From assembly GCF_006345805.1 (NCBI RefSeq), contig NC_043003.1, positions 100,998,001-101,062,000 on the forward strand: a stretch of 64,000 bases of DNA. Direction: 5' to 3'. This DNA is from Octopus sinensis (lineage: Eukaryota). Below the pieces are notes generated by a model. It saw only the letters and a program-made list of their open reading frames with translations, searched no databases and was not told where the DNA came from. The position numbers were made by a program, and so were the translations under genes. Below are positions 23,421 through 62,515 of this stretch, one piece after another. Position 1 is the first letter of the stretch. Each line of letters opens with the position of its first letter.

Positions 23421-24168
23421 AGAGAGGTTATGTATCGAATAAATACTATAAATACTATGAATATATTTATCAATGGGAATAAACTAGCGAATATCAATTT
23501 AAAAAGACAATAACTAAGTTATGCTATTAAGTTAGACATGGCCTGGACCAATCTTTGGTCGAAACATATCTAAGTTTATCTAAGTTTATCTAATTTTAAT
23601 TATAAGAAATTTAAAACTACAATTAATACTATTGATACATGTATATACATAAACCTAACTTTAGACAACTCGTATACTTGCTATCAAACAACATATCTAT
23701 CGCTAAGTAATATCTTATGAATAAACTTAAATTTGATATCTAATAATATAGAAAATTACGATAATTAGATTATTACATAAACAACGATATTTAAATAAGA
23801 AAAATATTATTACACCAAAGACTTATAAAATATTAAAATTTACAATTTAAAGATCTTAAATATAAATAAATACTTATCTTAGCGAGGTTTTGTAATGAAC
23901 TAAAATTTTGAATCAGAAAACGTCTTTACAGCCTTTATAAGAATACTCGTGGAATTACGTTATTAGCAAAAAAAGAATAAATTGTTGAAGAATTCATTAA
24001 GCGTGAGGAACAAATACGCTTTATCAATGAAGATTTGAATGGGAATAGTAATGGTTTATCAATAAGTGTAAATAGAAAGAATTCACAAATAAAGAATAAA
24101 ATCACTCTATACTATAAGATTTATTATTACATAAATATATATATATATATATATAAATATATATATAC

Positions 24169-24244
<76 letters not shown>

Positions 24245-24249
24245 ATGAT

Positions 24250-24798
24250 AATCTCAGAGCGAGTTATAAACAGTAGCGATAACACATCGTGTTGCATATT
24301 TGCCATTTGAATATGGCTAACCCATAAGGGTGGATGCTACTGTAGTTTGTACCCCCAGGAAGATATCTCCACCAGCTGGCTATAGCTATAGCCAGCTGGT
24401 GGAGATATCTTCCTGGGGCTACAAACTACAGTAGCATCCACCCTTATGGGTTAGCCATATTCAAATGGCAAATATGCAACACAATGTGTTATCGCTACTG
24501 TTTATAACTCGCTCTGAGATTTATCATTGTTTGATTTCACTTTTTCAATATCAGTGTCAAATTGACACTGGAAAAAGTATATGTATTTGTGAAGGGATCT
24601 GACTTCTCATCGACAACCATGATTGTCACATACTGTGTATCATGTGTTGAAGACGGGGAGGATGACTCCCCTTCACAAATACTGAGAGGACACAGATAGT
24701 GTGTCTATAGCCAGCTGGTGGAGATATCTTCCTGAGGCTACAAACTACAGTAGCATCCACCCTTATGGGTTAGCCATATTCAAATGGCAAATATGCAA

Positions 24799-24801
<3 letters not shown>
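24250..24801 (+). repeat. 319-bp tandem repeat (about 1.3 units) preceded by an inverted copy forming a ~270-bp palindrome
   Basis: 24391 and 24710 are in register. Palindrome centre at about 24385/24386. Flanked by (TA)n on both sides. Confidence 0.88.
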
Positions 24802-24840
<39 letters not shown>

Positions 24841-25009: not shown

Positions 25010-26595
25010 CTCATCATCATTTAAAGTTTGTTTTCCATGCTAGTGTGGGTTGGATGGTTCGACAGGAACTGGCAAGTCAGAAGATTGCTCCAAGCCCTGC
25101 TGTTTGCTTTAGCATGGTTTCCTACTGCTGGATGCCCTTCTTAATGCCAACTACAATACAGAATGTACTGGGTGGTTTTTAAGTGGCACCAGCAACATTG
25201 AGGTTACCAAGTAATTTTTTTGACCAGATCTTCAACTGATATTGCAATTCCAGCAGAGCACACTGGTTTCATTTCTTTCAAGCCTTCTCTCTTCCCATCC
25301 AGTTCTCATTCTGGTAACTATGCTTTCAGAGAAACCTTCTCTACTGCTAACTTGGTAACCTTGGTAATGGAAACTATCGACTACCTCTAAGGATGAATAC
25401 ATGAGAAAGTCTATTTCCTGTTCAGTCTTAGTGTTTACTGCATATCTGCCACACACAGACTACTTTCTCTGTAAACCTCCCTGTGATTCCACTGTACTTC
25501 TTATGTGTCCATAGCTTGTACTGGGTACACCATATGGAATTTTTACCCATACCTTTTCTACATAGCAAGCAGGGCCATCTCTCTGAAGGGATTAATAATT
25601 TGTCTGCTTTCTTGTTTACTAGTACTTTTGTCTTTGCTAAGTTAACTCTAAGCTCCTTTGATTCCAGGCCTTGCTTCCACTCAGCTATAAGAACAAGATA
25701 ATCAGCATAATGGAGTTTGCAAGAGAAACCAGTCTTAAATTCCTCTGTTATGGCCTGGAGAACTATAATAAACGAGACTTGTACACTAAATTTGTTGCTG
25801 CACTTGTTGCCAGCATTCACCTCACTGACAACATCCCTGTATATGACTTAGATGGCTCTCACCAACTATTCATGTGGCCTAGCTTCTGCATCGACCACCA
25901 AATGTGGGAGTGAAGATCCTGCACAAAAGCTTTCTTACCGACAAATGCCAAGCATGCCTATATATTTTCTGCTAAATGCTTCTCCTGCTGCTGCCTTGCT
26001 AAGAAGATAACATCAGTGGTGCTTTCCCTTGGCACAAAACTAAACTGCATTTCATCTAGGTTAACTTTGTTCCTAATTAGTTGAGCTATGACTCTTTCTG
26101 TAACTTTCATAACCTAGTCCAGTAATTTGTCCTTTGTAATTACTTTAGCATCACTTTTCCCTTTGTTGCAGACTATAATTTTGCTACATCAATCATTGAG
26201 TATGGCTCCTTCCTGGACAGGCTAATTAACTATACAGATGACTAGTCCATACCATACTTCATCAGATATTTAAACATCTCTCATGGCAACTTCTCATGAG
26301 CCAGAGGCTTTCATAGTCTTCATATCTTTAATTGCTTTATTTATCATACTGTTGTCAACTAGAATAGCTCACCCCTCTGATGGGTCCACATTGGGAAGAC
26401 TTTCCTTCTCTCAGCATTCTCTACATTTAGCAGCCTTTCATAGTGAAAATTTTATACCACTTTCTTTGCAGAGTCACTAAATGAAGTGTACCATCATCTA
26501 TCCAAACACACTTCTCTTTCACAATCTCTCAATTTTCTCTGATACACTGTCTTACATTTTGGAACACCTCATGCCCCTGGTCCTCATGCTGTATA
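25010..26595 (-). mobile_element. Decayed RTE LINE
   Basis: LQAITEEFKTG, LRVNLAKTKVL, and a 3' UTR with (GAT)n. Confidence 0.85.
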
Positions 26596-27976
26596 GAAAT
26601 ATTTTATAAAATTCTTATAAAACTTTTATAATTTTTATTTTTTGTATTTTATATTATAAAATTTAGGTATTAAAAATTTAGGTATTAAATACCTAAATTT
26701 TATAATATAAAATACAAAAAATAAAAATTATAAAAGTTTTATAAGAATTTTATAAAATATTTCTATACAGCATGAGGACCATTATACTTTATAAATATTT
26801 TATATCTATTGTTTATATCTATATTTGATATTTTTATACATTTTTATATCCTTTCATATACTTTCCTAGTGTTTGTAATTTATAAATAATTTTTTATAAG
26901 ATATTTTTATATAATTTATTGGATATGGGGATCTTTATTTTAGTATATTTTTTAATCATGCATTATTCTTTAAATGTTTACATACCCAAATTGGTTTAGG
27001 TATTGCTTCTGAATGTATCCCCTTATACATTTAATATACCTCTAATTCAATTACCGCTTATATTTGATACCATATCTTATACTTATCCACCCGTAATGAA
27101 AAGAATAGTTCTTTTTATTGCTTTAAGATAAACTATGTACTTCTACCCATATGATAATCTAATTCCATTATACATTCATTTTAGAATGTCTTTATCATGA
27201 CCTTCTAAACAATATGCTTAGAATATTCTTAATAGTTTTTCTTATATATTAAGGTATCCCACCCATTATTAGATTTAAGTTTAATTTCTATCCTTATTCT
27301 ATATATTGATTTAAATTTTCTCAATTTAATATAATAAATTTGCTAAGTTAAAGATTTCTACCTCCCATATCCTTCAATTCTAATTTCTAGCCCTAAAAGT
27401 TTATATTATTTATCTCTTTTGGTTTTTCATTACAATCCCTTTATTTGATAATCTAAATAAGTATTGGCCACCCCTATCCTTCTTTCTTCCAGTTACAACC
27501 CATTAGACATTCTCTTACTACCAACCTTGCAACCTACTCCCTTTACATAGATAAAGCTAGATATATGGTTCCAGTGGGGGGGGGGTTATCTAGTAGATTA
27601 TCTGACATTAATTGATTTATCACCATTAACTAAATACAGTTGACAACTCTCAATGGATTTAACTGTGAATGGTTGAAGACTACATACTACATTAAGTCTT
27701 CTAAATATAAGTAACTATGTCACCACTCCTTTTATCTTGACCTCCTCTATTTCCCCTGCTACTCTCTAAATTATAGTTGGCATAACAAGGTATGCATTAT
27801 TTTCTAAACTCATTCTGCCACAGATATAAAAAAAGGAAACAATGTAAATATTTTGGTTTCCATTATTGATGTAAATTTGTTTAAAAAACGGTTTATCTTT
27901 TATTAGTTAGTTAATTTGGCTCAAAAGCAAATAGCAAGGCCATGTAGGGGGACATGGAGTTTGATGTCTATTCTAT

Positions 27977-48970: not shown

Positions 48971-49039
48971 TATATATAAATTAGAGATAAAACCACTATT
49001 AGGCAAATCAAACAGTGAAAAACATAAACGAAAACACAA

Positions 49040-49248
49040 AAAAATATATAATATACAAAATATATAAAATATAAAATTAAAAAATTTAAATTATTTAAGT
49101 TTAAAATTAAAATTATTAATTTATATTTATAATTAAAAAAAAATATATAATATACAAAATATATAAAATATAAAATTAAAAAATTTAAATTATTTAAGTT
49201 TAAAATTAAAATTATTAATTTATATTTATAATTAAAAAAAAATATATA
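49040..49248. repeat. 99-bp AT-rich tandem duplication
   Basis: Two near-identical copies in register at 49045 and 49144. Confidence 0.85.
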
Positions 49249-50701: not shown

Positions 50702-50739
<38 letters not shown>

Positions 50740-50746
<7 letters not shown>

Positions 50747-51186
50747 CAAAGAAATTCCAACTCTGTTTTTTATGTTTTATTTATATTCTTTATAATATCA
50801 ATGTAGAATATAGAATATATAGTATAAATAATATATATATAATAAAATGAAGTGAAGTATTGATTGTCTTATTGAATAGATGAAATATTGAATATAAAAT
50901 ATGAGGGGACTAGTATACTTTCTTGCATTATAGCAGCCTTCAAGGTATCAGGTTGTGACACTCTTGTCACAACCTGGGACCTTGATGACTGCTTAAATGC
51001 AAGAAAGTTATCTAGTCCCTTAATATTTAATATTCAGTATTTCATCTATTCAATAAGACAATCAATACTTCATTTCCTTTTATTATATATATATATTATT
51101 TATACTATATATTCTATATTCTACATTAATATTATAAAGAATATAAATAAAACATAAAAAACAGAGTTGGAATTTCTTTGAATAAT
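50740..51186. mobile_element. Foldback element (~445-bp imperfect hairpin)
   Basis: Arms pair almost to the centre, TGTGACActctTGTCACA. Confidence 0.8.
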
Positions 51187-51219
51187 ATATCCCTCTATAC
51201 ACAATCATACAAAGCCCTT

Positions 51220-55810: not shown

Positions 55811-55944
55811 AAATTAATACTTGAACAGGGTGCTGCTGCATAATGCCAAAGACTTTGACTTTGCCATCAAGATACAGGACAAGATATTGCAACAGCCTGG
55901 GCTTTAAAGGCCCACAGCTCTTCAATATATGTATATATTAGAGA

Positions 55945-56345
55945 GATGTACTTGCATAGCAAGTGACCTGATCTGAGATCGTGTGTTGAAACAAAAACAA
56001 TTGTAGTATGGTAGGTGTTTAAAAGCCATTTAAAAACACACAAAAACTGTTAGATTCACTTCAACATTTAAATTTAATTTGCCAAAATATTATTGTCGCT
56101 TTGAGACCATGACCTGTTCACTGACAAAATTCCATGCTGCACACACACACACGCACACGAGCGCATAAATATATTGCACAAAATTTTGTCAGTGACAAAA
56201 AAATTTGATACAAATTAAATTTAAATGTCGAAGTGAATCTAACGGTTATTGTGTTTTTTTAAATGGCTTATAAACACCTTCCACACCGCAATTGTTTTTG
56301 TTTCAGCACACGATCTCAGATCAGGTCAGTTGCTATGCAAATATA
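55945..56345. mobile_element. MITE or foldback with ~170-bp inverted arms
   Basis: TTGCATAGCAAGTGACCTGATCTGAGATCGTG / CACGATCTCAGATCAGGTCAGTTGCTATGCAA. Confidence 0.75.
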
Positions 56346-56420
56346 TCACTGTAATATATATTGGGTTGTATGTATATATATATATATGTGTGTGTATGTG
56401 TGTGTGTGTGAAAATATATA

Positions 56421-56475
<55 letters not shown>

Positions 56476-56478
<3 letters not shown>

Positions 56479-56612
56479 ACATAAGGGGGATCAGCCATCT
56501 GAATGTGGCTAGGGACAGGGCGGGGTGGTGGGGGTGTTACTGATGCATTTAGCCCCAGGCGATCATCGACGTCACCAGAAGGGCCGACACGGATACTACA
56601 TACGGACCGGTT
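56476..56612 (-). repeat. Inverted partial copy of the 360-bp unit
   Basis: Reverse complement of the unit 3' part (about 56859-56973), joined to the reverse complement of about 56783-56806. Confidence 0.9.
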
Positions 56613-56754
56613 TAGAGCAGTTACTGTTTATATCTCGCTCAGAGATTTATTATTGTTTTCGAACGGATTTTCTACGCCAGTGACTGTGGTTACTGTGAAA
56701 ATCCCTATATATCCAGCCTGTAGAGGAAGTCCCTCAACGAAGAACGGTGCTTAC

Positions 56755-56797
56755 CATGCGTTGACAAGAGGCAATATCCTCGAAACCGGTCCGTATG
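56755..56797 (+). ncRNA. Minimal type I hammerhead ribozyme, U3-A8 core (unit 1)
   Basis: Stem I CATGCG/CGTATG, core TTGACAA, stem II GAGG-caatat-CCTC, GAAA, palindromic stem III ACCGGT, and a GUC cleavage triplet ending at 56791. Confidence 0.85.
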
Positions 56798-57114
56798 TAG
56801 TATCCGTATCTTCGGGGAGGCTGATCTCCCTTTGCAGGTTGGCAAGGACACCGAGATGGTGTCGGCCCTTCTGGTGACGTCGATGATCGCCTGGGGCTAA
56901 ATGCATCAGTAACACCCCCACCACCCCGCCCTGTCCCTAGCCACATTCAGATGGCTGATCCTCCTTATGTTATAGAGCAGTTACTGTTTATATCTTGCTC
57001 AGAGATTTATTATTGTTTTCGAACGGATTTTCTACGCCAGTGACTGTGGTTACTGTGAAAATCCCTATATATCCAGCCTGTAGAGGAAGTCCCTCAACGA
57101 AGAACGGTGCTTAC

Positions 57115-57157
57115 CATGTGTTGACAAGAGGCAATAACCTCGAAACCGGTCCGTATG
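57115..57157 (+). ncRNA. Minimal type I hammerhead ribozyme, U3-A8 core (unit 2)
   Basis: CATGTG-TTGACAA-GAGG caataa CCTC-GAAA-CCGGTC-CGTATG. Predicted cleavage after 57151. Confidence 0.83.
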
Positions 57158-57375
57158 TAGTATCCGTATCTTCGGGGAGGCTGATCTCCCTTTGCAGGCT
57201 GGCAAGGACACCGAGATGGTGTCGGCCCTTCTGGTGACGTCGATGATCGCCTGGGGCTAAATGCATCAGTAACACCCCCACCACCCCGCCCTGTCCCTAG
57301 CCACATTCAGATGGCTGATCCCCCTTATGTTATAGAGCAGTTACTGTTTATATCTCGCTCAGAGATTTATTATTG

Positions 57376-57414
<39 letters not shown>

Positions 57415-57416
<2 letters not shown>

Positions 57417-58290
57417 GCCAGGTTGCATCCTGTCACCAGCAGCCTTCAACATGTACGCTGAAAAGGTCATGAGGAATGCAGGCCTGGAGGATAGCAGCAT
57501 TGGAGTGAGGATTGGAGGAAGGAATATTAATAACCGTCGCTATGCAGATAATACAACCCTGCTGGCGGAGAGTGGTAAGGATCTGGCGGATCTTGTCCTG
57601 CTGGTCAAGAAAGAGAGTGAGAAATTTGGGCTGTACCTCAATGTTAAGAAAACGAAGATCATATCAACAGCAGCCACAACAAACATCAGCATCAAGATCG
57701 ATAATGAAGAGATCGAAGTGGTTGATGATTTCATCTTCCTTGGCTCCAAAATAAATCGAGATGGTGACTGCACTTCAGAAATAAGACGGCAGATAGTACT
57801 AGGCAGAGAGGCAATGCTCAGCATGAGCAGGGTCTGGAAGAGTAGAGACATCAGACTCACTACCAAATGCAGATTGGTGAATGCAATTGTCTTCCCAATA
57901 GCAACATATGGATGTGAGACCTGGACACTAAAGAAAGCTGACCAGAAGAGAATTAATGCATTCGAGCTTTGGTGTTGGAGAAGACTTTTACGGATTCCAT
58001 GGACAGCGAGGCTCACCAATGGAGAAGTTCTTAAGCAGATCAGGCCGAAAATGTCGCTAGAAGCTAGGATCACCAAGCATAGATTGGCATATTTCGGTGA
58101 AATATGTATGCTGAAAATCCCTGGAGAAGGGCATCATGCTCGGAATGGTCGGTGGCAAGAGAGGAAGAGGCCAACCAAGAACCCACTGGCTTGACACCAT
58201 CAAGAGTGATCCCGGAATGAAGCGGCCCAGGATATAACTGACTGGAGGACACTGATCCAACAAGCAACCGAGAGTCGACTTTGACTGAGC
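57415..58290 (+). mobile_element. RTE/BovB-like LINE 3' fragment
   Basis: GCILSP, RYADN, YGCETWT, FELWCWRRLLRIPW. Confidence 0.88.
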
Positions 58291-61546: not shown

Positions 61547-62114
61547 ATATATATATGTGTGTGTGTGTGTATGTTTGTGTGTCTGTGTTTGTCCCCACCA
61601 ATATCACTTGACAACCAATGCTGGTGAGTTTATGTCCCCATAATTTTGCGGTTTGGCAAAAGAGACCAATAGAAAAAGTACCAGGCTTACAAAGAATAAG
61701 TCCTGGGGTCGATTTGCTTGAATAAAGGCGGTGCTCCAGCATGGCTGCAGTCAAATTACTGAAACAAGTAAAAGAATAAAGGAATATAGCCTCAAGTTGA
61801 CCAAAGCGTTGTGGGTAGACTTCGTACATGGAAACTGAAAGAAGACTGTCGTATATATGTGTATATTTGTGAGTGTGTGTGTGTGCGTCTGTGTTTGTAC
61901 TCCCACCTTCACTTGACAACCGATGTTTCTGTGTTTATGTCCCCATAACTTAGCGGTTCAGCAAAATACACCCATAGACTAAGTACTAGGTTTACAAAGA
62001 ATGGATCCTGGACTCAATCAGTTCAACTAAAGGCAGTGCTTGAACATGGCTGCTGTCACAATAAAAACAATAAAAAGCTATTCCATTTTAATCCCAATGT
62101 CAGGTATATCTCTC

Positions 62115-62515
62115 TCTTTTTTACTCTTTTACTTGTTTCAGTCATGTGACTGGCCATGCTGGAGCACCGCCTTTAGTCGAGCAAATCGACCCCAGGACTT
62201 ATTCTTTGTAAGCCTAGTACTTACTCTATCGGTCTCTTTTGCTGAACCGCTAAGTGACGGGGACGTAAACACACCAGCATCGGCTGTCAAGCAATGCTAG
62301 AGGGACAAACACAGACACATAAACATATACACACACATACATATATATATATACTACAGGCTTCTTTCAGTTTCCGTCTACCAAATCCACTCACAAGGCT
62401 TTGGTCAGCCCGAGGCTATAGTAGAAGACACTTGCCCAAGATGCCACGCAGTGGGACTGAACCCGGAACCATGTGGTTGGTTAGCAAGCTACTTACCACA
62501 CAGCCACTTCCGCGC
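62115..62515 (-). mobile_element. Full-length tRNA-derived SINE with internal microsatellite
   Basis: A box TGGCTGTGTGG and B box GGTTCAGTCCC. Related copies at about 1-62, 7720-8095, 28400-28575, 45200-45350, 51290-51490, 54725-54885 and 61550-62060. Confidence 0.85.

Follow-up and report, generated by a model that had tools for sequence, protein, structure and literature searches.

A hammerhead-deleted copy of a putative non-LTR retrozyme in Octopus sinensis, and the RNA scaffold its family appears to share with a 360-bp sister repeat

Does the repeat at positions 24244-24801 of a 64,000-nt stretch of Octopus sinensis DNA (contig NC_043003.1; hereafter the window) represent a family of elements that does without a ribozyme, or a ribozyme-bearing element that has lost one? 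A sequence-only reading of this stretch had proposed a ribozyme-less 319-bp sister family of the 360-bp hammerhead repeat found further along the window, built on a conserved RNA scaffold from which the ribozyme module could be removed, or in which a processing motif had gone unrecognised. We hold instead, with a probability of roughly 0.9, that 24244-24801 is a defective copy of a retrozyme of about 353 bp, sister to the 360-bp family.

The element comprises 558 nt between two (TA)n tracts, in which an ORF with reverse transcriptase (RT) and GIY-YIG is absent (Table 1). Of the bounds first proposed, 24250-24801, the end was correct; the start lies at 24244, and the first 142 nt of the element (24244-24385) form an inverted arm. 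The 136-bp fold-back (99% complementary) is the inverted arm at 24286-24385 with 24386-24521, and the arms of the element are 97-99% alike. The 5'-truncated forward unit holds CCTGGGGCTA (24412) and a TAGCCA..TGGC hairpin (24452). The hairpins, including the 14-bp stem listed in Table 1, and the 319-nt start-to-start spacing of the forward arms are real features, as had been reported, and a plain hairpin does stand in place of the hammerhead in this copy, with no core readable on either strand of 24244-24801. The tail motif has 1,210 exact matches in the genome. At 24563, where 28 of the 29 other units have C, this copy shows a private CpG change to T. High-copy repeats with very high summed contig depth flank the element at 23700-24100 and 25011-25181.

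Table 1. Features of the element at 24244-24801 and of the 360-bp insertion, in window coordinates.
Feature	Positions	Strand	Basis
(TA)n microsatellite, left flank, target site	~24131-24244	.	TRF and architecture
43-nt tail in inverted orientation, a terminal extension of Penelope type, at this end only	24244-24285	-	L001 segment -[43-1]
Inverted 5'-truncated arm, final 100 nt of the unit	24286-24385	-	
5'-truncated forward unit, 100 nt, unit positions 254-353	24386-24485	+	
One complete unit of the 353-bp family lacking 34 nt; its 3' end is the short, tail-less one	24486-24801	+	
Tail segment within the tandem, with the motif common to the 360-bp family (24496-24524)	24486-24531	+	
Hairpin with CAGTGTCAA / TTGACACTG	24541-24576	+	
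Long stem, hammerhead normally at its tip; outer 14-bp helix 24583-24596 with 24669-24682	24583-24682	+	
Residual hammerhead stem I, closed into a plain hairpin	24618-24644	+	
Deletion junction, net 34 nt gone (catalytic core, stems II and III, cleavage site)	24631-24633	+	
GGACAC..GTGTC hairpin common to the 360-bp family	24688-24704	+	
(TA)n microsatellite, right flank	24802-24838	.	
Insertion of the 360-bp family between (TA)n tracts	56475-57377	+	
Hammerhead core of the 360-bp family, U3-A8 variant (UUGACAA...GAAA...GUC)	56761-56791	+	

A DNA search of the 2.72-Gb genome returned 1,759 candidates, of which 40 were scored and the best 30 of these 40 aligned. Among the scored matches, full-length family members other than the window copy span 346-353 bp. 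A block of 33-34 nt that is missing from the window copy was present in all 29 other full units among the best 30 of the 40 scored, about four pairs of aligned loci being the same locus or duplicates. The block consists, in order, of CUGAUGA, stem II, GAAA, a 2-bp stem III and GUH, and sits inside stem I; the strict core pattern was found in 26 of the 29 units, and the other three carry point changes. Outside the gap, the window unit is 94.7-97.5% identical to the other units. Up to three full units stand head-to-tail (L015), and units of 346-353 bp fall within the 150-450 bp of non-LTR retrozymes and are too short for RT coding. The genome contains 218 exact intact cores, and the core of the 353-bp family is the canonical C3-G8 form. 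By its testable features, the family appears to be a non-LTR retrozyme, a dispersed retroelement that is non-coding and equipped with a type I hammerhead; the window copy is a defective member of it, lacking the ribozyme that defines such elements.

We identified the block in 37 of 37 rows of an older subfamily, which shares about 80% identity with the young one, and the strict core in 22, a count biased toward the block since the query itself contained it. Retention of the hammerhead was also observed across the older subfamilies (L052, L079, L108 and L122-L151; 72-89% identical); in their stem II, A-U has changed to G-C in compensatory fashion, and the base of the stem has a C-A mismatch.

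Searches against Rfam recovered no hammerhead family for the intact copies L004 (E up to 5) and L118 (E up to 10), nor for the window including its 360-bp copies (E up to 1), the output being microRNA-like or microsatellite noise alone. The proposed hammerhead assignment is drawn from core residues and covariation, not from a match to an Rfam covariance model. In a 61-nt intact monomer, the predicted hammerhead fold lies 5.6 kcal/mol above the MFE with a stem III pair probability near 0, and the stem II base pair is non-canonical in 9 of 18 aligned rows. That stem III is outcompeted in the predicted monomer fold fits the dimer mode of metazoan type I hammerheads, which, in the available text of PMC4209133, act as dimers where stem III is short and palindromic.

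We examined how widely the deletion is distributed, using the two stem-I flanks with a free spacer between them, so that the core was not selected for. The flanks lie at most 30 nt apart at a single place in the genome, the window copy, 31-39 nt apart at five and 40-55 nt apart at 201; these counts refer to exact patterns and cover copies with unchanged flanks, the first 100 of the 206 being the matches listed. The junction pattern itself, at up to two mismatches, has one genome match, again the window copy. Four of the five loci with 31-39-nt spacing are family copies, each with a different private lesion: deletions of 6 nt and 10 nt with short microhomology, a deletion of about 7 nt, and three single-base losses. 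The fifth, L193, proved to be a chance match to the flank pattern and was left out of the family count. In L189 (G000:C2:67371800-67371854), the 6-nt deletion removes the cleavage triplet, and one placement of its edge is the exact cleavage site. A rare T at 24400 is present in all three arms of the window copy; the only other locus with this variant, L118 (contig C4), also has the rare T at 24492, retains an intact core, and differs from the window copy beyond the junction at about five positions, two of which are CpG transitions. On these matches, the net 34-nt core deletion appears to be private to the window copy.

These data bear directly on the idea of a ribozyme-less sister family, its scaffold carrying a removable ribozyme module or some other processing motif, which we regard as scarcely credible. 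The window copy without its core still folds as a clean hairpin at the tip (z -5.3), and insertion by a Poseidon element in vitro was independent of hammerhead cleavage, according to the accessible part of PMC11167929, both of which would favour such a family. Against it, the core is missing at 1 of 207 flank-pair matches, the junction is unique, the nearest sister (L118) is intact and the old subfamilies keep the core. For copies with these exact flanks, a ribozyme-less family is therefore refuted at the family level, as the family has an ordinary hammerhead that was lost in this copy alone, the very outcome that the sequence-only reading had named as its refutation. The 319-bp family gives way to a 346-353-bp unit with a hammerhead, and both the removable module and the unknown processing motif to an ordinary type I hammerhead deleted in the window copy only; the genomic copies collected for a consensus, with the ribozyme in 29 of 29 other full units, decided the matter in this direction.

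The junction admits three readings: (A) a 34-nt deletion at a TG microhomology together with a change of CG to TA at one CpG, (B) a loss of 33 + 1 nt, and (C) a loss of 37 nt with 3 nt inserted. The simplest microhomology reading costs two extra substitutions at one CpG, and the same CG to TA change occurs in the intact old copies L108 and L135. The right edge of the junction falls 1-2 nt past the cleavage site; the left edge coincides with the position that pairs with this site. Every reading leaves one single dead copy. Most likely, this DNA copy suffered the deletion when it inserted or later, in the manner of the small private deletions of other decaying copies, and the deletion did not spread.

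The position of the junction edges could alternatively mean that the lesion dates from reverse transcription, with a jump of the RT across the paired stem I at the ribozyme junction or at a self-cleaved 5' end. This reading, which we consider unlikely, accommodates a retained right side that begins 1-2 nt after the cleavage site and a left side that stops at the pairing partner, as well as the edge placement available in L189. However, the other three lesioned copies are deleted elsewhere (two with short microhomology, one by single-base losses), and 5' truncations at the cut are not enriched (4 of 63, with 2.0 expected, P 0.13; 2 of 27, with 0.8 expected, P 0.20). The CpG change in L108 and L135, moreover, allows a plain deletion at the TG microhomology. 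Were the RT to have jumped, the copy would still be private and dead, yet it would record cleavage in vivo.

An assembly or polishing error at the hairpin tip, with the core present on the real chromosome, is very improbable in our view. Among the contigs listed from four public runs, none bridges the junction, and the contigs that reach 24630 run on into an intact core, but hundreds of copies are possible sources of these, so that the contigs neither confirm nor exclude the junction. No RNA run was listed among those that contain the sequence. Against an error of this kind, the copy is otherwise clean, with its arms 97-99% alike, and similar private deletions exist in other copies.

We give slightly less weight still to a deletion already carried by the RNA template, in which a ribozyme-less RNA underwent a single retrotransposition from a source locus since lost or missing from the assembly. 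The deleted stretch is covered once in the locus, so the timing is unreadable from the arms, and other variants (T at 24400, in three of three arms) were on the template. Against this, no source locus with the junction was found in the genome, and L118, which shares the template variants, has an intact core. We similarly hold it to be highly doubtful that a Penelope-type protein reverse-transcribed and inserted a hammerhead-less family RNA with no guide other than the conserved scaffold and the 43-46-nt tail. If this were so, a retrozyme could pass through one round of transposition in vivo without ribozyme cleavage, and the essential cis signal would be the tail instead of the ribozyme. For assays of cleavage and circularisation, the deleted copy is a negative control already to hand.

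We identified the 360-bp family in the same window as an insertion made up of a 116-nt tail-less inverted arm (56475-56590), two full units and a 3' tail, the second hammerhead core lying 360 nt downstream of the first (57121-57151). The U3-A8 core variant was found in 20 of 20 units of this family; the atypical core belongs to the 360-bp family, not to the flagged 353-bp family. Directly after this insertion, a coding-like stretch at 57420-57960 presumably represents a fragment of an RTE-type LINE reverse transcriptase. Elsewhere in the window, we noted an AT-rich fold-back at 26578-26781 (97-nt arms, 99% complementary, 10 nt apart), an AT-rich 99-bp tandem at 49038-49248 (2.1 copies, 100% match), and long inverted repeats with arms of 110-226 nt at 50728-51199, 55932-56360, 409-1339 and 61594-62420, which are probably other transposon ends or inverted arms.

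Five motifs had been described as shared between the two elements, and we matched all five in both, in the same circular order: the tail motif (24496 and 56622 in the two elements, respectively), CGGGGAGG (24654 and 56813), GGACAC..GTGTC (24688 and 56846), CCTGGGGCTA (24412 and 56890; the second arm reads CCTGAGGCTA), and TAGCCA..ATGGC (24452 and 24771, against 56938). In global alignments, the window unit matched the 360-bp unit with a z of 10.1, or of 6.6 with the tail removed, and the intact family unit matched it with a z of 14.4 and 226 of 333 aligned columns identical (68%); none of 500 dinucleotide shuffles scored as high in any of the three comparisons. The claimed sister relation thus stood across a z range of 10.1-14.4.

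The proposed conserved RNA scaffold was likewise borne out by covariation, in an alignment of 16 rows of the 353-bp family, drawn from its subfamilies, and two rows of the 360-bp family. Over 34 named pairs, 95.9% of cells pair, and 13 of the 34 pairs are changed on both sides, against a shuffle mean of 5.5 (0 of 500 shuffles reach 13) and 0-3 in slid controls; as the structure was drawn from the same, related rows, these figures count as support and not as a probability. Changes on both sides affect 7 of the 14 pairs of the outer 14-bp helix, and the covariation takes in stems I-III and the swap of the core from C3-G8 to U3-A8. Folded as a circle, the unit is predicted to be strongly self-paired in the two families (z -9.1 and -5.1). 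From these alignments, the 353-bp and 360-bp families appear to be homologous sisters that have kept one RNA scaffold at 68% identity over aligned columns, through compensatory changes and the C3-G8 / U3-A8 swap.

We scored insertion anatomy in 43 loci of both families (26 + 17). The published Penelope insertion signature includes 5' truncation, partial tandems and an inverted 5' arm (PMC8557442, in the portion available), and Penelope-type insertions target (TA)n or AT-rich DNA. We found 5' truncation and partial tandems in insertions of both families; 26 of 43 loci (17/26 and 9/17) also carry an inverted 5' arm. Insertions end at either of two alternative 3' ends, 43-46 nt apart, and the segment between these is the tail; 33 of the 43 loci have it at one end, 10 lack it and none has it at both, and it stood at exactly one end in all 26 loci with an inverted arm. 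At the 3' end, 36 of the 43 loci (25/26 and 11/17) have a (TA)n tract. The retrozyme family thus behaves as if mobilised by a Penelope-like element (PLE).

The motif best conserved between both families falls within the tail. Since the tail holds this motif and marks the alternative 3' ends, and since the corresponding tail of a Poseidon element is described in the available text of PMC11167929 as the stretch between two internal RT start sites, we infer that the tail is likely the RT-initiation signal for the mobilising protein. The earlier suggestion of an RT-recognition signal would fit the tail in this way, and the best-conserved block nominates a 45-nt signal for RT initiation.

We propose that tandem transcripts self-cleave, probably as dimers, given that stem III is only 2 bp long with a near-palindromic loop, and that the cleaved RNA may circularise. 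The RT/GIY-YIG protein of an autonomous PLE would nick (TA)n DNA, reverse transcription would start at one of the two sites 43-46 nt apart to yield tailed or tail-less ends, and the RT would copy more than one unit and often add an inverted 5' arm. Within loci, the arms share 81 non-majority positions against 117 discordant ones, counts that do not separate a circular monomer from a multimeric template. At 19 of 117 discordant positions in the family designated A, both alleles are common at other loci; in L015, L011 and L025, units within one insertion, tandem or inverted, sometimes differ at such sites. Multimeric or mixed templates could account for these differences within an insertion.

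The genome contains many GIY-YIG elements, among them open frames with RT plus GIY-YIG at the C terminus, of 781 aa (L113:3371-5714, +) and 775 aa (L112:4245-6569, -). Among the PLEs at L086-L111, L112 and L113, the commonest family has a (TA)n end, with or without a tail of about 35 nt; the tail carries a small CTCG..CGAG hairpin, and upstream of it the 3' region holds a minimal hammerhead-like motif of the U3-A8 form. We provisionally call these elements Neptune-type for a CxxC-type motif upstream of the C-terminal GIY-YIG, following the description in the accessible part of PMC8557442. Using a GIY-YIG family search, a second endonuclease query, 18 stretches and an old-subfamily query, we found no autonomous element sharing the retrozyme tail or body among 70 endonuclease-bearing rows, some of them duplicates, drawn from 5,029 and 18,763 first-look candidates, of which they make up a small part. 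The best score across these 70 rows was 24, against a null 95th percentile of 26 and a score of 60 for the true tail pair. A-type copies beside PLEs in L108, L112 and L179 are insertions separate from these; in L112, the copy next to the 775-aa frame inserted on its own, in inverted orientation, into a (TA)n tract.

We did not find the two families described in the literature searched, which consisted mostly of open journals, without repeat databases, and bioRxiv supplements may list relevant families. The closest published counterparts are the animal non-LTR retrozymes, such as the 350-390-bp repeats of Mytilus galloprovincialis (PMC7229834; bioRxiv 10.64898/2026.07.22.740005, as far as their text was available), which the latter source argues to be non-autonomous derivatives of PLEs. 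The octopus families are like these in their non-coding unit of about 350 bp, found in monomers and short tandems, in a type I hammerhead with a weak stem III, and in a strongly self-paired circle. A difference is that the window copy lacks the hammerhead. The available sections of the Mytilus papers do not describe (TA)n targeting, inverted arms or an optional tail for retrozymes. As both octopus families show the full Penelope insertion signature, they lend direct anatomical support to the published idea that animal retrozymes ride on PLEs.

With Neptune-type PLEs and their pLTRs, as portrayed in the accessible parts of PMC8557442, PMC11167929 and PMC4209133, the families share a 5'-truncated partial tandem, an inverted 5' copy, a tail at one end, (TA)n targets and a hammerhead upstream of the 3' end; the U3-A8 core variant, as in the 360-bp family, is also reported for PLE hammerheads (PMC4209133). 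Unlike Neptune-type PLEs, the retrozyme families have no ORF, and their tail measures 43-46 nt versus 30-40 nt. There is no sequence match in the 3' region between the retrozyme families and the PLE copies sampled in this genome, and the PLE hammerhead is minimal, whereas that of the retrozyme family has a full stem I with an internal loop. Finally, the non-autonomous PLEs of Chlamys, such as MRC1, likewise form pLTR-like partial tandems, according to the portion of PMC8557442 available. Elements of the MRC1 type resemble autonomous partners at the 3' end, in contrast to the retrozyme family, for which no partner was matched; and the MRC1 group is reported there to be without canonical hammerheads, whereas the retrozyme family has one.
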